Shown here one piece after another: positions 11,498-23,133 of a stretch of DNA of 64,000 bases. Source of the stretch: an uncultured Prevotellaceae bacterium (lineage in GTDB: Bacteria > Bacteroidota > Bacteroidia > Bacteroidales > Bacteroidaceae). A program made the position numbers and the translations under genes. The stretch is taken from NCBI GenBank assembly GCA_946625675.1, contig CAMOTI010000155.1:3543-67542 (forward strand), in the 5' to 3' direction. The notes under the pieces were generated by a model. The model was not told the DNA's origin, ran no database searches, and saw only the letters and a program-made list of their open reading frames with translations. Each line of letters starts with the position of its first letter. The first letter of the stretch is position 1.

Positions 11498-12457
11498 TTA
11501 GTTCCACGACCAAGCGTCCGGGTTGTAGTCTTTCTCCACGTTGTCCTCCAGTTTGTCGGTCAAGTTGCAGAAGAAGTCGATATCTGTGAATTTCTCCAGC
11601 TCGTCTATGGACATGGCGTGCTGCTTCATCTGCTGCATGGATGGGTAAGTTGCTGCGTAGCTTCCGTGCTGCTCCAGCAGGAATCCGATGGACTGGTAGG
11701 TGTTGTTCTTGGTTTCGGCAAGGATGGCCATGAAGTAATATTTCGGAACCGCCACCTTCACCGCGTCCCCTTTCACATTGGTCGTCTCGAAATAGCCTTT
11801 GCCCTGGAATCGCTGGCCCTCCTTGATGGTTCCGCCTTTGCAGACGTAGAGCTTCTTGAAGGTGGACGACTTGCTCCAGTTGCGGATGAGCAGCTCGAGC
11901 TCAGCCCAGTAATAGCTGTTGAAGTTGTAGAGCTGGGGCGACATGTTGCTCATGTAGAAAGTCTGCATGTTGGCCTGGGTGGAGTAGAGACGGTCGGCCG
12001 ACGCGCAGAGGTGTCCGCGGGTGTAGCCGCTGCCGCTGTAGGAGGTGGGGGCCAGCTGGCAGGCTGACGGCAGGTTCACGTCGGCACTCCATGCGTCGCT
12101 GCGGCTGCCGCTGCCCACTTTCGTCGTGTCGTCGAAGGTGAAGGCGACCCACCGGCTGTGGCACCATGCCGAGTCGTACTCGAAGCAGTAGTTCATGACG
12201 GTCTTGCTGGCCAGGTCGTTCATCTTCGCCCAGTGGGAGACGAACCGCAGGCCTTTCCCGGTCCTTACGTGTGGCACTTCCAGGCGCATCACGTCGCTGT
12301 TTGTCGCCCTAAGCGCTAAGTTGCTGTTTTTGTTCGACTTGTCTGTCACTTCTGTCGTGCTCTCTCCGTCTCCGTTATCGTCGCTACACGATGCAAGCAT
12401 GCCCGGCATGAGGATGCCGAGCATGACAAGCAGTATCAGATAATATAGCTTATTCAT
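11498..12457 (-). CDS. DNA/RNA non-specific endonuclease (NUC, beta-beta-alpha-Me), lipoprotein
   Basis: Lipobox MLASC. Active-site region GYTRGHLCASADR, then NMSPQ. Both are typical of the Endonuclease_NS family. Confidence 0.85.
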   Translation of the reverse strand: MNKLYYLILLVMLGILMPGMLASCSDDNGDGESTTEVTDKSNKNSNLALRATNSDVMRLEVPHVRTGKGLRFVSHWAKMNDLASKTVMNYCFEYDSAWCHSRWVAFTFDDTTKVGSGSRSDAWSADVNLPSACQLAPTSYSGSGYTRGHLCASADRLYSTQANMQTFYMSNMSPQLYNFNSYYWAELELLIRNWSKSSTFKKLYVCKGGTIKEGQRFQGKGYFETTNVKGDAVKVAVPKYYFMAILAETKNNTYQSIGFLLEQHGSYAATYPSMQQMKQHAMSIDELEKFTDIDFFCNLTDKLEDNVEKDYNPDAWSWN

Positions 12458-12466
12458 TGTTGTGGG

Positions 12467-14665
12467 TTATCGTCTTTTCGCAGTTGGGGTGCCAAAGGTA
12501 TGTCCTTCCCATTCTGCGTATGATGGACTCTTGATACCGCAGACACCGAAATATTTCTCAATGGAACCGTAAATAATTACCTTCTTTCCAAGTGGTGCTC
12601 CCTGGTTGATGAAAAGGCTTAGACCATCGAAAACTGTTTCTCCTTTTATTTTTGTAGGTAAACATTTTTTGTAGTCGCTCTCTTGTGGATTATCAGAAAT
12701 GAGGATTACTGCTTCCTGTTCTTCCGGAACTCCAAAGGTTGCTGAATTCTCATTGAGGTTATTTCCCTTTATGTATCCCACAATATAACCACTTACATAG
12801 GCTTTAGTTTTTGCATCTGGATTATTAGTGAAAATTGCCTGTGCGTCAGCTACGGTATAAGGATAGTGCAACGTTCCGTCGCCTTCTGTGTCCGTCGGAG
12901 AGGGTGTGGGGGTATCGCCGCCGCCTTCGCCTCCGCTGGTCGATCCGTTGAGTGAGTAGAGATATGCCTCCTTTTGTGAGGTCTCGGGCGTGTTGCCACG
13001 GAAGTTCATCAGCTTGCCGCAGAACACCACCTCGTCGCCTACTTTTGGCATCGTGCCCTCTGTGTAGGGCTGGTTGCCGAAGTACAGTGCGCGGTAAATC
13101 TGGAACTGGTTGGTGGTGGTTCCGTCGTCGGAGATGTAGCAGGTGATATTACCAAAGTATTCTCCTGTGTTACTGTTTACACTGTTGTAGTTCTCCTTGA
13201 TGCTCACCACTTTACCTTTCACGTATACGTCCTTGTCGGTCTTGGCGTCTGATGCCAGGGCATTACATACCTTGATGGCTGCCACGCAGTTGTAAGGGCT
13301 GTTGGCGGTTCCGTCGCCGGTGGCCTCACCGGATGGCTCTTCGTTACCGCTGCCTTCCACCACCTTACCGTTCAGTGAGTATAGGTAAGCTTCCCTCTGA
13401 ACAGTTTCCAGAGTGGTTCCGTAGTTGTTGACGAATTTCGTCACTTTACCGCAGATAATTACGTCGTCTCCAACCTTCAACAACTCACCGTCTCCGTCAT
13501 ACTCCTTGTTTCCAAGGTAGAGTGCACGATAAATATAGAACTGTCCGTCGGCAGATCCGTCATCTGAGATGTAGTAGGTTGCGTTACCATAATATTGTCC
13601 GTTTTGATTCTTGGAATCGTAGTTCTCCTTGATGGAGGACACTTTACCCTTGATATATACAACATCGGAACTTTTATTGTCTTCCAAGCTGTTGGCGAAT
13701 TGGTTGGCAGCTACGCTGTTGTAAGGATTTTCCTTCGTTCCGTCTCCGGTTGCTTCGCCTGATGTCGGATCGCTTGGTTTTGACTCCTGGCCGTTCAGAT
13801 AAGCCAGCTGGCTGTCTTGCTTAAATTCCTTTGTTGAACCGTATAATGTGAGTTCACCATAAACAATAACCTCGTCGCCCACCTTCAAATCGTCTTTTTT
13901 GGCGAAGTCTGCACCGCCTAAGCCTTTACCGCGGTAAACCTCGAGCTGTCCGGCAGATGTACCGTCGTCTGAGATGTAATAGGTTAGGTTGTGGTATCGG
14001 TTGAATTGTTCGTCGTCTATATCGTCGACTCTTGATACGATACCTTTTACAAAAACTTTTTTACCAGCATAGTCGCCTTTGTCAATAAAGTCGTTTGCGG
14101 CTGAAACGTTATAAGGATCTTCAAACGTACCACTTCCTGTAGGTTCGGCCTGGCTGTCGAACGGACTGCATTTTTGGTCATTGAGTTGAAGAATCCAACT
14201 GCCCTGAGTCACTTCAGCAGTAGAACCGTAAAGTGTGAGCTGTCCCCATACAATCACGTGGTCACCCACTTTCAAATCAGAAGGACTGTTGAAATTGGCA
14301 CCTGCCAGTCCCAATCCACGGTATATTTCCAGTTGCTGGCGAGCCACACCTTCCTCGTCGATGTCGTTTTCGTCAGCGATATAGTAGGTGAGGTTGTGGT
14401 AGCGGTTGAACTGGTCGGCATCGATATCGTCGATTTGAACAACGATACCTTCAACATATACATTTGAGCTGGAATATGTGCCGGCAGAGATAATTTTCAA
14501 CGCGTCGCTCACGGTGTAAGGATTGTCGGATTTTCCTTCACCTTTCATCGTCATGTCAACCTCTTCAGGACTTAAAACATAATAAGGTGACGGAACATCA
14601 TCACAGGCTGTGAAGAATCCAACTGCCAATAGCGGCAGAATCATTGTTAATAATAACTTTTTCAT
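12467..14665 (-). CDS. surface lipoprotein with four tandem OB-like repeats and a conserved C-terminal module
   Basis: Lipobox FFTAC. There are two type-A repeats (NPYTVSDAL...YYIADE...LKVGDHVIVWGQLTLYGST and DPYNVSAAN...YYISDD...LKVGDEVIVYGELTLYGST) and two type-B repeats (NPYNSVAAN... and SPYNCVAAI...). The C-terminal module ends in IEKYFGVCGIKSP. Confidence 0.6.
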   Translation of the reverse strand: MKKLLLTMILPLLAVGFFTACDDVPSPYYVLSPEEVDMTMKGEGKSDNPYTVSDALKIISAGTYSSSNVYVEGIVVQIDDIDADQFNRYHNLTYYIADENDIDEEGVARQQLEIYRGLGLAGANFNSPSDLKVGDHVIVWGQLTLYGSTAEVTQGSWILQLNDQKCSPFDSQAEPTGSGTFEDPYNVSAANDFIDKGDYAGKKVFVKGIVSRVDDIDDEQFNRYHNLTYYISDDGTSAGQLEVYRGKGLGGADFAKKDDLKVGDEVIVYGELTLYGSTKEFKQDSQLAYLNGQESKPSDPTSGEATGDGTKENPYNSVAANQFANSLEDNKSSDVVYIKGKVSSIKENYDSKNQNGQYYGNATYYISDDGSADGQFYIYRALYLGNKEYDGDGELLKVGDDVIICGKVTKFVNNYGTTLETVQREAYLYSLNGKVVEGSGNEEPSGEATGDGTANSPYNCVAAIKVCNALASDAKTDKDVYVKGKVVSIKENYNSVNSNTGEYFGNITCYISDDGTTTNQFQIYRALYFGNQPYTEGTMPKVGDEVVFCGKLMNFRGNTPETSQKEAYLYSLNGSTSGGEGGGDTPTPSPTDTEGDGTLHYPYTVADAQAIFTNNPDAKTKAYVSGYIVGYIKGNNLNENSATFGVPEEQEAVILISDNPQESDYKKCLPTKIKGETVFDGLSLFINQGAPLGKKVIIYGSIEKYFGVCGIKSPSYAEWEGHTFGTPTAKRR

Positions 14666-14728
14666 ATTGTAGATAGTTTTTTGTTTCGTTGTGGTTATTT
14701 ATATTTATCTTGTTTTATCAACGTCTGG

Positions 14729-16099
14729 TTATCGCTTTTTGGCTGGCGCAGTTCCTATTACTGTGTTGCCCCATGCGGCGTAGGTGGGGGATTTGATTCC
14801 ACAAACTCCGAAATACTTTTCTATGGAACCGTAAATCACTACCTTCTCTCCCAGAATGGCTCCTTGGTTTGTGAAAATGTCCAAACCGTTGCGGAAATCT
14901 CCCTTTGGCAGCTGTACGGGCACGCATTTTGTGTAGTCGGTTTCTTCTGGACTGTCTGCAATCAGAATTTCTGTTTCTTGTGTTTCAGGTACACCGAAAG
15001 TGGCAGTTTCAGCATTTAAGCCGGTTCCGTTTACATAGCCCACAACATAGCCCGTAACGTAGGCTTTGGTAGGAGTTTGCCCTGTGCTTTCATACAGTGC
15101 TTGTGTCTTGGTCACATTGTAGGGAGAGTCCATGGTGCCATTACCGTCAGGACTGGTTTCATCCTCATTGTCTGATGGAACAGTATCATCTCCCTCATTG
15201 TCTGACGGCACAGGGTCAATGTGAATAGAAGGTTTGGCATCCTTTTCTTCACGAAGCGTGAACTGCCATGTGTTGCTGTAGCGGGTCAGGACTGCGGTCA
15301 CATCGAGCAAGCCTGTGGGGATATTCTTTGAGGAAAAGTCTGCAAGTGCGCTTTGGCGGAGTATGAATTTCTTTCCGCCAACGTAAATCGTGTCGTTCAC
15401 ACCGTTGCCGGCGTCGCGGTCGTCATACACAGCATAAACTTTACGCTTGTTGAAACCATGAATCTCGGCATCCTGCACTCTGACAAGCATCGGGCACCAT
15501 TTGTGCATCTGGTCATTGGTGTTGTTTTTTTCAAGCCAGGCTCTGTCGATATCGATTGGTGTCACTTCGTAAGCAGTCTCGTCGAAACCGATAATCTCGA
15601 TTGACTTTGTGGCTCTGAACTTGGGCATGCCGCCTAAGCGTTTATTACCGCCGCTGGTGGTGTAGGGGGTGCCGATTTTTGCCAGGTTGCCGTATGAGCC
15701 TATATATAGCCCTTTCAAGTTCACTTTCACATGAGTGCCTACTGGGTAGGTGCACCATAAAGAATTGTCGTTGATTCCTATGGAGATGCAGTCGTCCCCT
15801 TTACGAACGTAGATTGACTGATAGAGATTGCCGCTGATGTCGTTGGCGCATACATAACCGTCAAATATCATGTCTTCGGTTACTTCAATCCAGCGGTTGC
15901 GGTTCGATTCGTCGGCGATGACGCTTTTAAATTGCTCTTTAAGGGCACCAAGCGTCGTTGTGCAGCCTGTGGCTTCTTGGTCGCTGCTGTAAATGTCGTG
16001 AACAACATCTGGCGTGTCGTAGTCGAATTTGTTGCATGAAGGAAGCAATGCTAATGTCAGGGCCAGACCGCATATATGATGGAATTTGATTGTTTTCAT
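14729..16099 (-). CDS. surface lipoprotein with an OB-like core (DUF5689-like from memory) and the same C-terminal module
   Basis: Start chosen at MKTIKF (16099) because it gives a signal peptide and the lipobox LLPSC; the ORF is open to 16147. The C-terminus ...VVIYGSIEKYFGVCGIKSPTYAAW is paralogous to the C-terminus of 12467-14665. Confidence 0.6.
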   Translation of the reverse strand: MKTIKFHHICGLALTLALLPSCNKFDYDTPDVVHDIYSSDQEATGCTTTLGALKEQFKSVIADESNRNRWIEVTEDMIFDGYVCANDISGNLYQSIYVRKGDDCISIGINDNSLWCTYPVGTHVKVNLKGLYIGSYGNLAKIGTPYTTSGGNKRLGGMPKFRATKSIEIIGFDETAYEVTPIDIDRAWLEKNNTNDQMHKWCPMLVRVQDAEIHGFNKRKVYAVYDDRDAGNGVNDTIYVGGKKFILRQSALADFSSKNIPTGLLDVTAVLTRYSNTWQFTLREEKDAKPSIHIDPVPSDNEGDDTVPSDNEDETSPDGNGTMDSPYNVTKTQALYESTGQTPTKAYVTGYVVGYVNGTGLNAETATFGVPETQETEILIADSPEETDYTKCVPVQLPKGDFRNGLDIFTNQGAILGEKVVIYGSIEKYFGVCGIKSPTYAAWGNTVIGTAPAKKR

Positions 16100-16155
16100 C
16101 TTTTCATTCTTTGTTGTTTCATGATAATCTTTTCTTTTCTCACGCACATATCAAA

Positions 16156-18792
16156 TCAGAAGCGCAGACCAATGGTCAGGAATGCGGTAAACGGATAAGC
16201 GTAGGCATATTTCGAGTTGTATGCGAACTGATAGGAGCGGACTTTTCCGGTCTTGTCGAAGTTGTCATTACGGCTCTGTTCCGAACCACGAAGTTTCATG
16301 TTCCGGTTGTTCGTCACGTTGTTGAGGTTCAGGTTCAGGTTCAGTGTACGGCCATGATGCAGACGGAAGGAACGACCGATTGAAAGGTCACACATAATTG
16401 CGCCGTCAAATTTCTCCTGACTCTTCGGACTGTAGCTGAGGATTTCGCCGTTCTCATCTTTCAGAACGCCGCCTTTCATCTTATCTACCGCCCATGAGGC
16501 TTTGCCGTTGGCATCGAAGGTCTTCGACACATCAGGCATCACGTCGGTCAAACGGAGATAAGGTGAGAAATATATATAGGTGCGCCCATAATAGTTGGCA
16601 CGGGCTTCCAGGAACCACCCGTTTACGTTGTAGCGGGCACCAAGGCTGAGGGCTGTCAGCGGGGTACATCCCACTTTCATGCCGTCGGTCACCACTTTCA
16701 GCTTATGATGATGGATAGGATCCCACCAGTGGGGGCTCTGCTCTGCGTCGGACTTGTCGTAGCAAATCACAGCATCAGCGTTGTTTGTGTATTTGGCATC
16801 GGTAATGGACCCTACGAAATCTACTGAGAACTGGGTGGTAAACCGGTATTCAGCGGTCATCTCCAGTCCGTAGTGTCTTTTCTTAATGCCGGTCATTGTC
16901 AGGTAGCTGTACTCCTGCTTGATGTCGTCGAAGAACTGTGATTGCTCTGTAACATCGTCAAATTGGGTGAGGAATCCTTTAAGCTGACCGCGGAGTTTTC
17001 CGAAATTGAATTTATAGGTGGCTTCCGCAAACACGTCGAACTCGTCTTTGAGGTCGAATGCGAAGGCGTTGCGTGTCTGTACGTTCAGGAAACTTACGCT
17101 CGGAGTCGGAGGACGGAACTCAAATCCACCGCTGATATTAAAGAAATGGTGGGCGCCTGCCGATACTCCTATTTGGGCTTTCATTCCTCCACCCATGAAT
17201 TTTGCGGTGCCGCTGCTGCCTTTTGAGTGCTCTGGTGAACGTCCGTTGCGCATCTTGCCGACACGCTCTATCGTTGTTCCGTTCACATTGGCGTTGAATA
17301 CTCCCGATACGTTATTATGGGTAAAGGAGTAGGAACTCCATAACTGGCCCTTGTTCACGTTGATGTGGTAGTTGTAGCCGAATTTGTCACCTTTCTTGAT
17401 GACTCGGCTCGGATGGTCGAGGTCATTCTGTGATTCGTTGCTGTAGGCACCATAATCACTTGAAGCGAAACGGTCAAGGTCGGTGTGGTAAAGGCTTCCG
17501 AGAAGGTCGTTCATCGTCTTATAGAACATACCGGTGGTGTGGTTCAAATTCAAACCGGCGTTCACTGTGCTATAGCGGTCTATGGTGTGCTTAAGGGTGG
17601 AACCAAGATTCCAGGCGAACTGGTCCTGGTGCGACTCCTCTAAGTAATATACAGCCTCACCGCTTCCGTTTTTCACGCTGTTCTGGTTAATCATGTACAT
17701 CTTGTCCCAGTCTATCTGACGGTTATGTTCCGATGCTTTCCAGTAGTCAACATAGCTGCGCCACTCGCTAAACTCCCATTCGTTCGGAGCCACACCGCTA
17801 TACACGTTGAATATGTTGCTCGGCATATAATGGTAGTAGTCTGGACGGGGGTCTGCGGCGTTGTTCGTACGGTTGATATACGTCTGACCGTATTTTGCAT
17901 AACGTAAAATATTGGTTGTGGTCAGCTTTGTCTCTGGGCTGATGTTCCAATCCCAGGTCAGAATGGCTGTCGGCTCCATGGTTTTACGTACTCGTGAGCT
18001 GCGTTTCTTTCCATTTTGATAACCCCAGAACGGGTTGTAGTAGTGGGAATTGGCAAGCCAATAGGCCTCTTCCGTGGTCCAGCTCGATGTGGCCTGTTCG
18101 GTTGGGGCGAAGAGAAGGGAGAGTGAGAGGTTGTGATAGCGGTTGAAGAAACGCTCCGCTCCGAGGTAGACCGCTGCGGCATGCATATAGGTTCCTTTTT
18201 GCTGGCCTTCCTCGCCGTAGCGGATGTTGGCGGCGCCGGCGAAGGCCCACCCGTTCTTGATGCCGGTGGCATGGGCGAACATCAGACGTCCGATGTAGTT
18301 GCGGTTGGTCAGCGCAAGCGACAGACGGGAACCGGTTCGCATCAGGCTCGGACGGATATTCAAGTTGGCACCGCCGCCCAAATCGTAGTAGTTGATGCCA
18401 TTTTGCTCGAATGTGGTGATTCCCTGTTGGTTGCGGGTCACGTCGGACAGGCCGCCGAAGAGCGAGGAGAAGCTGAACTGCCCGCGGATCACGTCGTTCA
18501 CTTGAGCGCCGTTCACTGTCGTCGTACGATAGCGCTGCTCATAGTTGTGAGGACTGTAGTAGGAATGACCAAACCGGAAGTTGGTCTTCGTCAGGTACAG
18601 GTCGTCATTGTAGGATGCCGTGGACGACGCGCTCTGGGTCACCGTGGACTCCTCGTCGAGGTCAAAGTCCGTGATGCCAAATGCCTCTATGTCGTCGTCA
18701 TCATCTGCAGGAATACTGTCGGTGGGGGTCTGGCCCCAGGCCGACAAGCTCAGATACAGAAGCGGCATGATTAACAATTGTCTCTTTTTCAT
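16156..18792 (-). CDS. TonB-dependent receptor-like outer-membrane beta-barrel
   Basis: 878 aa with a signal peptide and an acidic DDDDD stretch. The plug-like region is VNDVIRGQFSFSSLFGGLSDVTRNQ. Long amphipathic beta-strand composition, and the C-terminus ...TIGLRF ends in an aromatic residue. Confidence 0.8.
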   Translation of the reverse strand: MKKRQLLIMPLLYLSLSAWGQTPTDSIPADDDDDIEAFGITDFDLDEESTVTQSASSTASYNDDLYLTKTNFRFGHSYYSPHNYEQRYRTTTVNGAQVNDVIRGQFSFSSLFGGLSDVTRNQQGITTFEQNGINYYDLGGGANLNIRPSLMRTGSRLSLALTNRNYIGRLMFAHATGIKNGWAFAGAANIRYGEEGQQKGTYMHAAAVYLGAERFFNRYHNLSLSLLFAPTEQATSSWTTEEAYWLANSHYYNPFWGYQNGKKRSSRVRKTMEPTAILTWDWNISPETKLTTTNILRYAKYGQTYINRTNNAADPRPDYYHYMPSNIFNVYSGVAPNEWEFSEWRSYVDYWKASEHNRQIDWDKMYMINQNSVKNGSGEAVYYLEESHQDQFAWNLGSTLKHTIDRYSTVNAGLNLNHTTGMFYKTMNDLLGSLYHTDLDRFASSDYGAYSNESQNDLDHPSRVIKKGDKFGYNYHINVNKGQLWSSYSFTHNNVSGVFNANVNGTTIERVGKMRNGRSPEHSKGSSGTAKFMGGGMKAQIGVSAGAHHFFNISGGFEFRPPTPSVSFLNVQTRNAFAFDLKDEFDVFAEATYKFNFGKLRGQLKGFLTQFDDVTEQSQFFDDIKQEYSYLTMTGIKKRHYGLEMTAEYRFTTQFSVDFVGSITDAKYTNNADAVICYDKSDAEQSPHWWDPIHHHKLKVVTDGMKVGCTPLTALSLGARYNVNGWFLEARANYYGRTYIYFSPYLRLTDVMPDVSKTFDANGKASWAVDKMKGGVLKDENGEILSYSPKSQEKFDGAIMCDLSIGRSFRLHHGRTLNLNLNLNNVTNNRNMKLRGSEQSRNDNFDKTGKVRSYQFAYNSKYAYAYPFTAFLTIGLRF

Positions 18793-19136
18793 ATATGTTT
18801 CGATTAGTTAGTATATCCTTGTTTGGTGGTTGCGTCGCTGATTTTCAGACCTTTTGGGCGAAACGGGATTACCGCTGCTGAAAATGCGTAATATGAATTA
18901 TTGCAAATATACAAATAATTTCTTTAGACTTAACAATATTTTCATAAAATTTGAAAATTTTTTCAAAAATTACTTGTTTTCTAAATAATATTTCCGAACT
19001 TTGCATTATTAAGTCAAATTGTGGGTTCGCCACAAGTGCCATTGGCCGTTTTTTCATGGCGACATGAAGCGGGTCAATATAACTCTTACAAAATAACTAA
19101 AAACTGAATTATTCATACTCTAACACCCATACCCCT

Positions 19137-20234
19137 ATGAAAAACTTGAGATATATCATCGTGCTGGCGGCGCTGACGGCTGTGGCCGGACTCCTCTCGT
19201 TCACGCCCAAGCCGGCTGCAAGGCAGATTATTGTGCCTATCGCATTCTATAATCTGGAGAACCTGTTCGACACCATCCACGACGAGGTGTGGGACACCAT
19301 TGACGGTGTGCCCCGGAAAATCGCGGACAAGAACGACTATGAGTACTTGCCTGACGGGACGAATCATTGGAACTCCATGAAATACTGGGCAAAGCAGAAG
19401 AACATGTCGTATGCCCTCTCTCAGCTGGGCATCGACAAGCAGCCTAACGGACCGGCCATCATCGGCGTGTCGGAAATCGAGAACCGACGGGTGCTGGAAG
19501 ACCTCGTGAAGCAGCCGGCGTTGAAAGACCGTGGATACAAGATCATTCATGAGGAGGGGCTTGACCGTCGTGGTGTGGACTGCGCATTCCTCTACAACCC
19601 CCGTATGTTCAAATACCAGCGGCATAAACTCATACCTTATATATATCCCGGCAACGACACCACTCACGCAACACGTGGATTCCTGCTCGCCACGGGCACC
19701 ATCCTGAAAGAGGAGGTGAACGTCATCGTCAACCACTGGCCGTCGCGTTTCTCTGGATCCTTCTACCGCGAGCATGCGGGTAAGCAGGTGCGAGCTATCG
19801 TGGACTCACTGCAGCGGCAGAATCCGGATGCCAAGATCATCATCATGGGCGACATGAACGACGACCCCGACAACAAGTCGATGGCGGAGGCGCTGGGTGC
19901 CAAGCGCAGCGAGAAAGACTGTGGACCTCAGGACCTCTGGAATCCCTGGTGGGATCATCTGCGCAAGCGCGGAGTCGGCACACTCAAGTACGACGGGGCA
20001 TGGAACCTCTTCGACCAGATTGTCTTCACTGCAAACTTCCTCAAGAACGTGAAGAACGACGGATACAAGACACTCGCATACTACACGCATGAGGTGTTCA
20101 ACCGCGACTTCCTCATCCAGCAGGAAGGGGCATACAAAGGCAATCCTCTGCGTACACATGCTGGAGGAACATGGCTAAACGGTTATTCTGACCATTTCCC
20201 CACCATTGTCTATTTTGCTAAAGAAATAGAGTAG
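19137..20234 (+). CDS. endonuclease/exonuclease/phosphatase (EEP) family protein, secreted
   Basis: Signal peptide. EEP motifs FYNLENLFD, IIMGDMNDDP and a C-terminal GYSDHFP. Confidence 0.85.
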   Translation: MKNLRYIIVLAALTAVAGLLSFTPKPAARQIIVPIAFYNLENLFDTIHDEVWDTIDGVPRKIADKNDYEYLPDGTNHWNSMKYWAKQKNMSYALSQLGIDKQPNGPAIIGVSEIENRRVLEDLVKQPALKDRGYKIIHEEGLDRRGVDCAFLYNPRMFKYQRHKLIPYIYPGNDTTHATRGFLLATGTILKEEVNVIVNHWPSRFSGSFYREHAGKQVRAIVDSLQRQNPDAKIIIMGDMNDDPDNKSMAEALGAKRSEKDCGPQDLWNPWWDHLRKRGVGTLKYDGAWNLFDQIVFTANFLKNVKNDGYKTLAYYTHEVFNRDFLIQQEGAYKGNPLRTHAGGTWLNGYSDHFPTIVYFAKEIE

Positions 20235-20310
20235 GGTTACTTACAAACCCGTAATAAACCCCATTACTGGAACATCTCCAATCTCCACCCTCGCATGAAC
20301 CGCAGGTGAT

Positions 20311-20335
20311 GTAGAGACTCCCCGTGGGGTGTCTA
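20311..20335 (+). repeat. GTAGAGAC-hairpin family, copy 1
   Basis: gtagagactccccgtggggtgtcta (one mismatch in the stem). It lies 77 nt after the EEP gene stop. Confidence 0.75.
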
Positions 20336-20398
20336 AAACGAAACCGTACATAACCTTTAACAGAAACCTCTGGACCGTAAGCAAGAAAGCAGGATAAA

Positions 20399-20454
20399 CT
20401 TCTTGTCTTCTCGTCTTCTCGTCTTCTTTTATTCTCGTTTTCTTGTCTTCTCTT
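20399..20454. repeat. degenerate 8-bp word array (CTTCTYGT) upstream of the 879-aa protein gene
   Basis: cttcttgt|cttctcgt|cttctcgt|cttctttta|ttctcgttt|tcttgt|cttctctt. Confidence 0.8.
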
Positions 20455-20493
20455 AAAACATTATCTACTAATTAATTTATAACTCTCTCTATT

Positions 20494-23133
20494 ATGAAAA
20501 AACAATTACGACTTATTATTTCTCTGGCTCTGCTGGCCTTCTTTGCCACTGGAACCAAAGCTGAGGAGTACGTATGGGACTTCTCTGTCGCTTCCTATGC
20601 GTCTGCATCGGAGGACCAGGTTGCATGGACAAGCGATTATGCCAAACTTGTGGTTGACAAGGCTGAGGCTGGAACGCCTGCCAACAACTATCTGGGTGGC
20701 AGTGTGAATGAGGCTACCGGAAAAACTGTGACCAGTAGCCGGTTTTACACGAACAGTGTGGTGACCATCACACCTGCTGACGGCTATACCGTCACTTCCG
20801 TTGTCTTTGAATGTACAACCGACAACTATGCCAAAGCCCTCAAAGAAAGCACATGGGACAACGCTACTGCTACTATTTCTGAAAAAGTGGTGACTATCAC
20901 ACCCACCGACGGTACCAAGCCTTTCTCTGCTACGATGGGTGGAACCACAGGATCAAGCAAAGTAACCTTGAATTATGTGGCCCCAGGAGGTGTCATTCCT
21001 CCTACACCACCTGTCATCTCACCTGCAACAGGCACATACACTGAGCCGCAGACAGTCACTATCACGGCTGATGAGGGTCTTAAAATCCTTTATTCCCTCG
21101 ACAATGTGACATACAACTATTATTATGGACCTTTCAAAGTTTCTGAAACCACTACTGTTTATGCATGCAGTGAGGATGCAAATGGAAACAAGAGTTCTCA
21201 CGTAGAGAGTACGATCACAATCAAAACTGGCACGGAGGAACCGGTTATTTACTCTGATGAGTTCAAAAATAATAAGGGTGGATTTGAGTTCAGCGACGTG
21301 ACTCTCCCTGAAGGTTTGACGTTTGTGTGGAAAAACAACAATTATGGATGGGTGGCATCTGCTTTCGCGAACAATCAGGCATACGCTGCTGAATCATGGC
21401 TCGTCTCGCCTGCTTTCAAGATCGATGCCGGCAGCCCGGCTACGCTGTCTTTCAGCCACGCATTAAATAAGGGCACGAAAGAAGCCTGCGGACTCTATGT
21501 TTCGGAAGACAAGCAGAACTGGACTGAAATCACCGTGCCTACCTGGCCTGAAGGAACCAACTGGAATTTTATTTCCTCTGGCGACATCGACATGTCAAGC
21601 TATGCAGGAAAGACCATCTATCTTGGTTTCAAATATGCAAGCACAACTTCAAATGCGCCGACATGGGAAATAGAGGAACTGACACTTAAAGGCAAAGGCA
21701 GCTCGGATGTAAACCCTGCAGAGGTGCCGGAATATACTACCATTGCGGCTGCCAAGGCTGCGGCTACCGTCGACCATGTGGATGTTTTGATGAAGCTTAC
21801 AAATGTGACTGTCACCTACGTGAACGGCTCATCGAACTACATCACTGACGGAACCGACGGGTTCCTCCTCTTCGGCTCTTCTCTCGGTCTGAAGACTGGC
21901 GATAATATCGACATCACTGTCACAGGACAGCTCTATCTCTATCACAAGCTGCCTGAACTTGCTGTCTCTAAAGTGGATGAGGTGAAAGTGAACTCGTCAG
22001 ACAATGTGGTGGAGCCGGTTGTGGTTGAGGTTACCGACCTTTTGACCGACTATCTCAAATATTCAAGCATGCTCGTGAAGATTGAATGTACCGGCATCGA
22101 GGAAGAGACCTGGACCGAAAGGCTCGTCACACTTATCCAGGACGGTGAGGAGTGCAAGATGTACGACAACTGGAAAGTGGCCACTGAAATGACCTTTAAG
22201 ACTGACAAGGACTACAACATCACCGGTATTGCCGCTGTACGCGATGAGAACGTGCAGATATATCCGCGTACATCAACCGATATTGAACTGATCACAGAAC
22301 AGGCACTACCGGCTTCCAAATGGATGGACGGAGAAGAGGAGGTTGAGAACATCGAACTCTCGTCTCTTGACGAGGCTTTGGAAGCCAAGTTCGTGACTGA
22401 CTCCGACGGGGAGGTCACCTATGAGTCTTCCGATGAGAGCGTGGCCACTGTTGATGCAGCTGGAAAAATCACATTGGTTGGTCCTGGAAAGTGTGTTATC
22501 ACGGCAAAGACTGCCGAGACCAGCGCATTCCAGGCTTCATCAGCTCAGCTCAACATCAAGGTGATGATTCTTCAGGGTGACGGAACAAAGGAGAACCCGT
22601 ACACCATCGCCGACGTTCAGCTGCTTTACGATGAGACCACACCGTCTGAGCCCGTTTGGGTCACCGGTTATATCGTAGGCTGCGTGAACGGAGCTCTCAG
22701 CAAGCCGGCTTGGACTGCCGACAGCGAGAACATCACGAAGACCAACTTCATCATCTCCGACAACAAAGATGCCGAGAGCGTAGACGAGTGCATCCCGATG
22801 GAGCTGGCAAAGGGCGAGATCCGCGACAACAACAACCTCGTGGATCATCCTGAAAACCTGGGTCAGCAGATGAAGGCGCTTGGCGTCATCACGAAATACT
22901 TCTCCGTATGCGGTATCAAGAGCGTGACCGAGCTCATCATCGGCGAAGAGCAGCAGCCGGAGACGAAGAAGGGCGACGTCAACGAAGACACGAAGGTGGA
23001 TATCTCCGACATCGTGGCTGTCATCAACCAGATTGCCGGCACTGCCACTTACAAGAACGCTGACGTGAACGGTGACGACAAGGTGGATATATCCGACATC
23101 GTGGCCATCATTAACATCATCGCAGGACAATAA
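20494..23133 (+). CDS. multi-domain secreted surface protein (Fn3/CHB_HEX_C-like, MAM/choice-of-anchor-J-like, OB-like, Big_2-like, shared C-terminal module, dockerin-like tail)
   Basis: Signal peptide. Domain hints: PPVISPATGTYTEPQTVTI; WLVSPAFKI...TWEIEELTL; ITGIAAVRDENVQIYPRTSTDIEL; SSDESVATVDAAGKITLVGPGKCVITA. The module ...GVITKYFSVCGIKS is present. The tail carries two DVNxDxKVDISDIVAxIN repeats. Confidence 0.6.
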   Translation: MKKQLRLIISLALLAFFATGTKAEEYVWDFSVASYASASEDQVAWTSDYAKLVVDKAEAGTPANNYLGGSVNEATGKTVTSSRFYTNSVVTITPADGYTVTSVVFECTTDNYAKALKESTWDNATATISEKVVTITPTDGTKPFSATMGGTTGSSKVTLNYVAPGGVIPPTPPVISPATGTYTEPQTVTITADEGLKILYSLDNVTYNYYYGPFKVSETTTVYACSEDANGNKSSHVESTITIKTGTEEPVIYSDEFKNNKGGFEFSDVTLPEGLTFVWKNNNYGWVASAFANNQAYAAESWLVSPAFKIDAGSPATLSFSHALNKGTKEACGLYVSEDKQNWTEITVPTWPEGTNWNFISSGDIDMSSYAGKTIYLGFKYASTTSNAPTWEIEELTLKGKGSSDVNPAEVPEYTTIAAAKAAATVDHVDVLMKLTNVTVTYVNGSSNYITDGTDGFLLFGSSLGLKTGDNIDITVTGQLYLYHKLPELAVSKVDEVKVNSSDNVVEPVVVEVTDLLTDYLKYSSMLVKIECTGIEEETWTERLVTLIQDGEECKMYDNWKVATEMTFKTDKDYNITGIAAVRDENVQIYPRTSTDIELITEQALPASKWMDGEEEVENIELSSLDEALEAKFVTDSDGEVTYESSDESVATVDAAGKITLVGPGKCVITAKTAETSAFQASSAQLNIKVMILQGDGTKENPYTIADVQLLYDETTPSEPVWVTGYIVGCVNGALSKPAWTADSENITKTNFIISDNKDAESVDECIPMELAKGEIRDNNNLVDHPENLGQQMKALGVITKYFSVCGIKSVTELIIGEEQQPETKKGDVNEDTKVDISDIVAVINQIAGTATYKNADVNGDDKVDISDIVAIINIIAGQ

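Follow-up and report, generated by a model that had tools for sequence, protein, structure and literature searches.

Within a window of 64,000 nucleotides (the whole stretch of DNA that was analyzed) from an uncultured Prevotellaceae bacterium (assembly GCA_946625675.1, contig CAMOTI010000155.1, positions 3,543 to 67,542), six genes between positions 11498 and 23133 very probably form a ddb-type DNA-utilization locus, namely, an analog for extracellular nucleic acid of a polysaccharide utilization locus (PUL), in a rumen Prevotellaceae-like bacterium. The reference system is ddbABCDEF of Bacteroides thetaiotaomicron, which was experimentally shown to be a DNA-utilization locus (Sharan et al., PNAS 2025, PMC12478041). 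The concept of a PUL-like use of DNA is, therefore, already published and experimentally grounded, and the window locus adds a member. The interest of this member lies mainly in the oligonucleotide/oligosaccharide-binding (OB) identity of the accessory binders, the modularity of the third operon gene, the stripped-down N-terminus of the outer-membrane barrel, and the occurrence of the system in Prevotellaceae of the rumen and the oral cavity. The present results comprise domain identities, catalytic motifs, predicted folds, and synteny, whereas we infer localization, binding, transport, and TonB dependence from the characterized homologous system.

An earlier note on this DNA had described a minus-strand operon for four proteins and two divergently transcribed genes. 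An open reading frame (ORF) check together with Pfam and NCBIfam scans recovered all six long ORFs at the same coordinates, on the same strands, and with the same domain content (Table 1). In the order of transcription, the operon encodes the barrel, the DUF5689 protein, the OB-repeat protein, and the NUC nuclease, and the genes for the EEP-family nuclease and the 879-aa protein are divergent from it across a gap of 344 bp. The note had also pointed out that a SusD-like partner is missing, and neither a SusD-like, a SusC-type, nor a carbohydrate-active enzyme (CAZyme) domain was detected by Pfam or NCBIfam in the locus or its flanks.

Table 1. Features of the putative nucleic acid utilization locus (positions are those of the window; E, Pfam E-value).
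Feature	Position	Strand	Content or basis	ddb counterpart
NUC nuclease, 319 aa	11498-12457	-	PF01223 Endonuclease_NS, E 9e-43	DdbF (position and function)
OB-repeat lipoprotein, 732 aa	12467-14665	-	PF01336, 44 bits; DUF6359, E 1.5e-22	DdbE
C-terminal DUF6359 unit of the 732-aa lipoprotein (residues 597-725)	12491-12877	-	Pfam; fifth OB-like unit	
OB repeat R4	12935-13318	-	Within the 732-aa lipoprotein	
OB repeat R3	13358-13750	-	Within the 732-aa lipoprotein	
OB repeat R2	13781-14137	-	Within the 732-aa lipoprotein	
OB repeat R1	14171-14536	-	Within the 732-aa lipoprotein	
DUF5689+DUF6359 lipoprotein, 472-aa ORF	14729-16147	-	DUF5689, E 1.7e-45; DUF6359, E 5.8e-28	DdbD
Outer-membrane barrel, 878 aa	16156-18792	-	Predicted fold; no significant Pfam match	DdbC
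Divergent control region, 344 bp, AT-rich	18793-19136	.	Two back-to-back Bacteroidetes-type -7 boxes by pattern	
-7 box TATATTTG, barrel operon	18904-18911	-	Bacteroidetes-type pattern match	
-7 box GAACTTTG, EEP gene	18996-19003	+	Bacteroidetes-type pattern match	
EEP-family nuclease, 365 aa	19137-20234	+	PF19580 Exo_endo_phos_3, E 2.6e-97	DdbB
Multidomain protein, 879 aa	20494-23133	+	CHB_HEX_C_1, choice-of-anchor J, half-DUF5689, Big_2, DUF6359, dockerin	DdbA position
Type I dockerin (residues 826-876 of the 879-aa protein)	22969-23121	+	E 4e-8, above threshold	

Two nuclease domains were recognized in the locus, an Endonuclease_NS domain behind a lipobox and an Exo_endo_phos_3 domain behind a signal of the signal peptidase I (SPI) type. 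Both had been anticipated, the former as a lipidated endonuclease of the NUC family (beta-beta-alpha-Me) and the latter as a divergently transcribed EEP-family nuclease/phosphatase, and both assignments are borne out by the profile matches in Table 1 and by the motifs described below. The closest solved relatives of the NUC protein are Anabaena NucA, EXOG, EndoG, and the Serratia nuclease, and its TRGH, SNMSPQ, and WAELE segments align with the conserved segments ARGH, TNMMPQ, and WGNLE of Anabaena NucA. From established knowledge of the Endonuclease_NS family, we take the TRGH, NMSPQ, and Glu segments to be the catalytic motifs (His, the Asn metal ligand, and Glu). The lipobox reads LASC, and the SDD behind it agrees with C(x/xx)(D/E)(D/E), the export signal for lipoproteins cited by Sharan et al. 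(PMC12478041); this combination of a lipobox with acidic residues at positions +2 to +4 suggests a location on the cell surface or on vesicles. The EEP protein contains NLEN, GDMND, and SDH, which match the NxE, GDxN, and SDH motifs of the family, and showed a weak match to the NCBIfam model ExeM_NucH. Since its signal peptide is of the SPI type and free of Cys, a periplasmic location is likely. A search by sequence for a solved relative of the EEP protein returned a spurious designed repeat protein as its sole match.

The co-conservation of these genes was assessed by a synteny scan of one genome per GTDB species, which yielded 530 loci with a relative of the barrel; the best 80 of these 530 were compared, and only loci with enough flanking sequence were counted. 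The 80 loci belong to rumen, gut, and oral Prevotellaceae, Alloprevotella, Prevotellamassilia, and Bacteroidales metagenome-assembled genomes (MAGs), and the closest, in a MAG from roe-deer rumen, encodes proteins that are 89-97% identical to those in the window. The DUF5689 gene is located directly downstream of the barrel gene in 75 of 76 loci and overlaps the barrel end in the 76th. The NUC gene is downstream of the barrel gene on the same strand in 43 of 58 loci, the EEP gene is divergent from and adjacent to it in 43 of 68, at least one of the two nucleases is present in 42 of 49, and OB repeats are present in 24 of 58. In this survey of Bacteroidales, a check that the earlier note had called for, the core is co-conserved in 80 species-level loci, an association of the gene set far beyond chance. 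In annotated records, in which the Bacteroides and Aureibacter relatives are named TonB-dependent receptor or CarboxypepD_reg protein, the barrel family occurs with DUF5689 and EEP genes in Bacteroides finegoldii (where the barrel is a TonB-dependent receptor), with a DUF5689 protein, an OB protein, and Endonuclease_NS in Prevotella sp. oral taxon 299, and with two DUF5689 proteins, Endonuclease I, and two EEP proteins (Exo_endo_phos_3-type) in Aureibacter (Cytophagales); the EEP gene of B. finegoldii is likewise of the Exo_endo_phos_3 type. The upstream DUF5689-like/DUF6359(/dockerin) protein is found in closer relatives only. No further conserved pathway genes were detected among the recurrent flanking clusters of the related loci; the other recurrent neighbors resemble, from sequence alone, genes of the housekeeping type (HisRS, RNase III, FabF, and an ABC-F ATPase), apart from one that represents a spurious antisense ORF.

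The ddb locus of B. thetaiotaomicron encodes three nucleases that are active in vitro (DdbA and DdbF with signal peptidase II (SPII) signals and DdbB with an SPI signal), a TonB-dependent-type transporter (DdbC), a DUF5689 protein (DdbD) that was modeled with AlphaFold3 as a surface lid of DdbC in a SusCD-like pair, and an SPII protein of unknown function (DdbE) (PMC12478041). Its deletion abolished the depletion of DNA and the production of DNA-derived uracil and xanthine in vitro and lowered the amounts of these two nucleobases in gnotobiotic mice, and its authors explicitly drew the analogy to the sus PUL (PMC12478041). The window locus has the same core order of EEP (DdbB), barrel (DdbC), DUF5689 (DdbD), SPII binder (DdbE), and SPII nuclease (DdbF), and the two loci share the number of six genes, the absence of SusD, a combination of SPII surface and SPI nucleases, and a PUL-like logic. 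The earlier proposal that this logic is applied here to nucleic acid agrees with that shown or proposed for ddbABCDEF, whereas the accompanying statement that no characterized system of such an architecture was known to its author has been overtaken by this publication (PMC12478041). The window locus differs in having two nucleases instead of the three (DdbA, DdbB, and DdbF) of the Bt1 archetype, in a non-nuclease, dockerin-bearing 879-aa protein with an SPI signal at the position of DdbA, in a DdbE-like protein made of four tandem OB repeats plus DUF6359, in an extra DUF6359 on the DdbD-like protein, and in its host, a rumen MAG versus a human-gut isolate.

Four ddb subtypes, Bt1, Bt2, Pv1, and Pv2, have been defined by the identity of DdbC, with approximately 25% identity between the Bt and Pv types (PMC12478041); the rule is an identity of >50% and a coverage of >75% to one of four reference DdbC proteins (e.g., WP_008762511.1). 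The window barrel is 31% identical to the barrel of B. finegoldii and 24% identical to that of Phocaeicola massiliensis, and these two are 24% identical to each other, mirroring the reported Bt-Pv value. No genome of B. thetaiotaomicron or P. vulgatus was present among the best 80 of the 530 loci, in which the weakest listed identities were approximately 40-41%, and a homologue search from the B. finegoldii barrel retrieved B. zhangwenhongii, B. acidifaciens, B. congonensis, and Odoribacter and none of the four reference DdbC accessions. Considering these identities and the composition of the best 80, the window locus most likely lies on the Bt-type side, below the 50% rule, and its sequence probably places it outside the four named subtypes as a new one. 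The P. massiliensis locus (OY726028.1, L084 8542-12889), which is possibly the "Pv-type" of the published classification, has a barrel with a canonical Plug (E 8e-13) and CarbopepD_reg_2, followed by a DUF5017 protein and not by DUF5689, and no nuclease was found in the 8.5 kb upstream.

Regarding the barrel, an AlphaFold2 model (predicted local distance difference test score (pLDDT) 80.5; predicted template modeling (TM) score 0.81) had approximately 22-24 strand segments by DSSP, and the top Foldseek matches in the PDB were all TonB-dependent transporters (TBDTs; Fiu, PqqU, FhuA, FecA, and others; E ~1e-32), with target-normalized TM scores of 0.6-0.7. The C-terminus is of the outer-membrane type (...GLRF), and >2844 homologues were retrieved, part of which are named TonB-dependent receptor. 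Since a profile of 35 family members gave 0 matches at E <= 1 against all PDB sequences, the membership of this barrel among TBDTs rests on its fold and on transitive homology. According to sequence and model, the protein is arranged as a signal peptide, an acidic disordered segment (residues 21-62), a candidate divergent plug (approximately residues 50-160), and the barrel. The candidate plug was recognized because this region aligns over segments of relatives that carry a Plug domain: residues 46-170 align to the Aureibacter homologue (29% identity, E 2e-14) and residues 65-163 to the P. massiliensis homologue (E 7e-9), exactly where those homologues have Pfam Plug matches. The model shows two short strands only in this region, and a Pfam scan of 35 relatives gave sporadic matches to Plug or PF00593, with Plug in 3 of 35 at E >= 0.03. 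An N-terminal CarboxypepD_reg domain is additionally present in the Bacteroides, Phocaeicola, and Aureibacter relatives, whereas the clade of the window barrel lacks it. On the basis of the predicted fold, the barrel is a very divergent homologue of TonB-dependent transporters, for which TonB dependence is presumed. The acidic segment (window 18607-18732, minus strand) has a net charge of -12 and a pLDDT of <50. Included in it, ahead of the plug, is an F-T-F-T-E-S-Q-L-D-like segment conserved in the clade (FGITDFDLDEES in the window barrel), which is not a canonical TonB box and which, as a guess, may fulfill that role.

The DUF5689+DUF6359 lipoprotein encoded next to the barrel is presumed, by analogy with DdbD, to be its substrate-binding lid and thereby to replace SusD. 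The ORF begins at a GTG located 16 codons upstream of an ATG (residue 17, ~16099; window 16099-16147, minus strand), and this ATG is probably the true start because it yields a proper lipoprotein signal, MKTIKF...LLPSC, with the lipobox LPSC/N.

The third protein of the operon, which has the lipobox FTAC/DD, had been described as a lipoprotein with four tandem OB-like repeats of two subtypes, and the present results substantiate this account and add a fifth OB-like unit to it. The repeats are approximately 120-130 aa each, with identities of 57% between R1 and R2, 60% between R3 and R4, and 31-42% across the pairs (pairwise BLASTP E 1e-12 to 1e-46), and the C-terminal DUF6359 unit aligns in the same register as R1-R4. 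The OB assignment itself, for which the earlier note had relied on sequence patterns, is supported by a match to PF01336 (tRNA_anti-codon OB fold; 44.2 bits against a cutoff of 27, in two stretches) and by an AlphaFold2 model built on 29 homologues (mean pLDDT 80), in which five bead-like units each consist of a helix followed by five strands. The top Foldseek matches of this model in the PDB were CTC1 (of CST), RADX, RPA70, Cdc13, the anticodon OB domain of LysRS, and SSB; whole-chain TM scores were low because the array is flexible, in the manner of beads on a string. When the OB repeats were compared by hhalign with the three DUF6359 units that the locus encodes, the probability was 87% (E 4e-6, 104 columns), and DUF6359 probably shares the OB fold with the repeats. 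DUF6359 is found in 2661 representative proteins, and a Pfam scan of a sample of these (n = 70) showed that it co-occurs chiefly with DUF5689 (24/70) and occasionally with PF01336, SNase, or LTD. Homologues of the OB-repeat protein carry PF01336, PF13742, and PF00436. Bacillus YhcR and Shewanella ExeM/NucH are extracellular proteins that unite PF01336-type OB modules with EEP or other nuclease domains in a single polypeptide and have no linked importer, whereas the OB modules and nucleases of the window are separate proteins, with the OB modules on lipoproteins in the importer operon. The database copy of the OB-repeat protein (P0121) has 725 aa, 7 residues fewer than the ORF, and a Met farther downstream is its probable start.

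The third gene of the operon, between those for DUF5689 and NUC, is a mosaic across the 80 loci (L001-L080). In many, it encodes choice-of-anchor J alone, and in others one to four or more OB repeats, DUF6359, or mixtures of these, with lengths of 390 to ~950 aa; homologues elsewhere reach 1250 aa and have BACON, SSB-type (PF00436), and ligase-OB (PF03120) matches. Domain shuffling in this gene appears to be rapid.

The divergently encoded 879-aa protein consists of an N-terminal region, CHB_HEX_C_1, choice-of-anchor J (added by NCBIfam), the second half of a DUF5689 domain, Big_2, DUF6359, and a type I dockerin. The Pfam match to DUF6359 accords with the earlier description of a divergent multidomain protein with another OB-like unit. 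No nuclease domain was recognizable by Pfam or NCBIfam, the signal peptide is Cys-free and of the SPI type, and we presume that the protein is an accessory binding protein. A full-length orthologue with 73% identity is encoded in locus L002, and related D5689L-D6359(-dockerin) proteins occupy the same position in L005, L007-L009, L011, L012, L058, and L064. The dockerin of this Bacteroidales protein is combined with an SPI signal and with neither a lipobox nor a type IX secretion system domain, and the upstream orthologues in L002 and L064 were also seen to have dockerin-like ends.

Taken together with the published system, these features suggest a route in five steps. On vesicles or at the cell surface, the lipidated Endonuclease_NS protein would cut extracellular DNA and probably also RNA, and the tandem-OB lipoprotein, possibly along with the 879-aa protein, would retain the polymer near the cell. 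Considering its invariant adjacency to the barrel and the published DdbC/DdbD model, the DUF5689-DUF6359 lipoprotein may act as a SusD-equivalent lid that passes fragments to the divergent TonB-type barrel, which would import oligonucleotides in a presumably TonB-dependent manner. The EEP protein with its SPI signal would then act in the periplasm and trim the oligonucleotides to nucleotides, which could be salvaged or catabolized. As in a SusC/SusD PUL, an enzyme and binders at the surface would be combined with a TonB-type importer, its lipoprotein lid, and an enzyme in the periplasm; the window locus differs from such a PUL in having neither SusD nor CAZymes, in a barrel that is not SusC-like in sequence, and in nucleic acid as the substrate.

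Several findings weigh against this interpretation. DNA is a poor sole source of carbon, nitrogen, or phosphorus for B. thetaiotaomicron (PMC12478041), and "utilization" may, therefore, not mean use as a growth substrate. The homology of the window barrel to DdbC rests on architecture and on the Bacteroides relatives at 31% identity. While the description of this protein in the earlier note as a TonB-dependent-receptor-like barrel stands with respect to fold and transitive homology, it does not with respect to Pfam, in which neither Plug (PF07715) nor TonB_dep_Rec (PF00593) was matched, and a clear TonB box was not found. Similarly, the second protein of the operon is a lipoprotein, as had been claimed, but the OB-like core attributed to it was not retrieved in DUF5689: hhalign found no relationship between DUF5689 and the OB/DUF6359 repeats, and a DUF5689 profile had no match at E <= 10 among PDB sequences, so that the one link between DUF5689 and OB folds is the resemblance in structure between DdbD and the p202 HIN domain described in the ddb study (PMC12478041). 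The 879-aa protein has an SPI signal without a known Bacteroidota surface-export signal, and its site of action is thus ambiguous. With pI values of 4.2-5.3 (4.2-5.0 for the OB repeats) and net charges of -2 to -11, the OB and DUF6359 units are strongly acidic, an unusual property in nucleic acid binders. These units are also rich in aromatic residues, and judging from their composition and fold, the binding of nucleic acid by acidic, aromatic-rich OB units is plausible.

The acidity of the binding modules would also suit a glycan-directed PUL-like system, in which OB, DUF6359, CHB_HEX_C, and choice-of-anchor J domains bind carbohydrate and the nucleases are incidental neighbors, as would the CBM_4_9 or BACON domains on some DUF6359 proteins and the derivation of CHB_HEX_C_1-type domain names from glycosidases. 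We regard such a system as highly improbable because no glycoside hydrolase, lyase, or SusD is present in the locus or its flanks, the enzymes that are consistently co-conserved are nucleases, and the fold of the repeats matches nucleic acid-binding OB proteins. The reading as a glycan PUL was rejected for the lack of CAZymes and SusD, and one as an anti-phage defense system was dismissed since all of the proteins have secretion signals.

The operon BT3560-BT3563 of B. thetaiotaomicron VPI-5482 encodes a TonB-dependent receptor, a hypothetical protein, and two lipoprotein nucleases, one of which, the extracellular DNase BT3563, is required for biofilms to form in a bile-dependent manner, and the synteny of the operon was reported to be conserved in Prevotella and Alloprevotella (Bechon et al., PNAS 2022, PMC8851478). 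The ddb locus of B. thetaiotaomicron is related to BT3560-3563 (PMC8851478). The window locus follows the same order of a TonB-dependent receptor, a hypothetical protein, and then lipoprotein nucleases; it differs in that the third gene encodes an OB-repeat protein instead of a nuclease lipoprotein, and BT3560-BT3563 was characterized for biofilm formation only. BT3563 is an argument that the window locus mainly remodels extracellular DNA (eDNA) in biofilms or host-derived DNA nets, with the nucleases as effectors and the barrel and binders as accessories. This role appears improbable as the principal one because it leaves unexplained the near-invariant pair of barrel and DUF5689 (75/76 loci) and a second nuclease with a periplasm-type signal peptide, and because the locus of B. 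thetaiotaomicron is required for DNA depletion and nucleobase production (PMC12478041). The remodeling of eDNA and the import of its fragments are compatible and not mutually exclusive.

The uptake of DNA across the outer membrane for natural transformation was also considered, with the barrel and DUF5689 protein importing long DNA for recombination and the nucleases processing its ends. The transformation of Riemerella anatipestifer depends on RA0C_RS04915 (a barrel with CarboxypepD_reg) and RA0C_RS04920, which combines DUF5689 with choice-of-anchor J (PMC8459023), and it is reduced by a tonBA mutation that causes no iron defect (PMC8383284). The authors of the ddb study related DdbCD to RA0C_RS04915/RS04920 and noted that a ddbB-like nuclease neighbors these Riemerella genes (PMC12478041). 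The likeness to the window lies in a homologous barrel family paired with a DUF5689 protein; this family reaches Cytophagales and Flavobacteriales, and OB arrays resembling binders of single-stranded DNA (ssDNA) could hold long strands. However, the two endonucleases, of which one is surface-lipidated and non-specific, would destroy transforming DNA, no competence genes are located near the locus, and the window barrel has an acidic disordered segment in place of the CarboxypepD_reg of Riemerella-type proteins. Furthermore, the Riemerella partner carries choice-of-anchor J/DUF5017, whereas choice-of-anchor J in the window is on the separate 879-aa protein, and the phenotype in Riemerella is transformation, not degradation. 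We consequently consider transformation to be an unlikely function of the window locus.

A more speculative variant, to which we also attach a low probability, is that the barrel clade lost CarboxypepD_reg, kept a degenerate plug, and threads long ssDNA or RNA across the outer membrane amid RPA/CST-like OB arrays. If so, it would represent a TonB-type transporter for the translocation of polymers and could contribute to natural transformation among rumen Bacteroidales, the OB-type protein with an SPI signal might stay periplasmic like ComEA, and the dockerin might tether a multi-protein complex for nucleic acid processing.

Under the preferred reading as a ddb-type DNA-utilization locus, the system, which was defined in Bacteroides and Phocaeicola of the human gut, is extended to Prevotellaceae of the rumen and the oral cavity, with the core of EEP / barrel-DUF5689-variable binder-NUC being kept across most of the best 80 of the 530 loci. 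The evidence from sequence and fold also suggests that accessory proteins of ddb-type loci with a "domain of unknown function", a point left open by published work, are built from OB folds. In rumen biology, the locus may be nominated as a pathway by which nucleic acids from microbes and feed are rapidly turned over.

Regarding expression, both -7 boxes of the control region are within the sole conserved blocks of an alignment of 11 orthologous intergenic regions, and the two opposed boxes are consistent with divergent promoters. Between them, at 18930-18972, the window is AT-rich and contains overlapping imperfect inverted repeats, such as TAAAATTTGAAAA / TTTTCAAAAATTA (85% complementary with a 2-nt spacer). 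The conservation of these repeats is weak in relatives, and they could, therefore, be an operator or have arisen by chance in AT-rich DNA.

In B. finegoldii (NZ_OY725948.1), a gene upstream of the barrel gene (L081 722-2317) that is annotated as a fimbrillin family protein has an Endonuclease_NS-like C-terminal region with 33% identity to the window NUC over 242 aa, and a match to the choice-of-anchor J part of the 879-aa protein was seen in the next gene of the fimbrillin family. Judging from these matches, the two genes may represent nuclease and binder modules on a fimbrillin-like scaffold.

Neither flank is related to the window locus: a DUF6057 membrane protein, a PD40 protein, and DPP-IV are encoded beyond one of its ends, and beyond the other are ClpB and a locus of the capsule type. 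The latter, a capsule/exopolysaccharide-type locus at 26315-~38700, encodes a Bac_transf initiating transferase, a Wza-like Poly_export/SLBB protein, and a Wzz/GNVR chain-length protein, and its GC content of 0.40-0.43, compared with 0.50-0.57 in the rest of the window, suggests a horizontally exchanged surface-polysaccharide locus.

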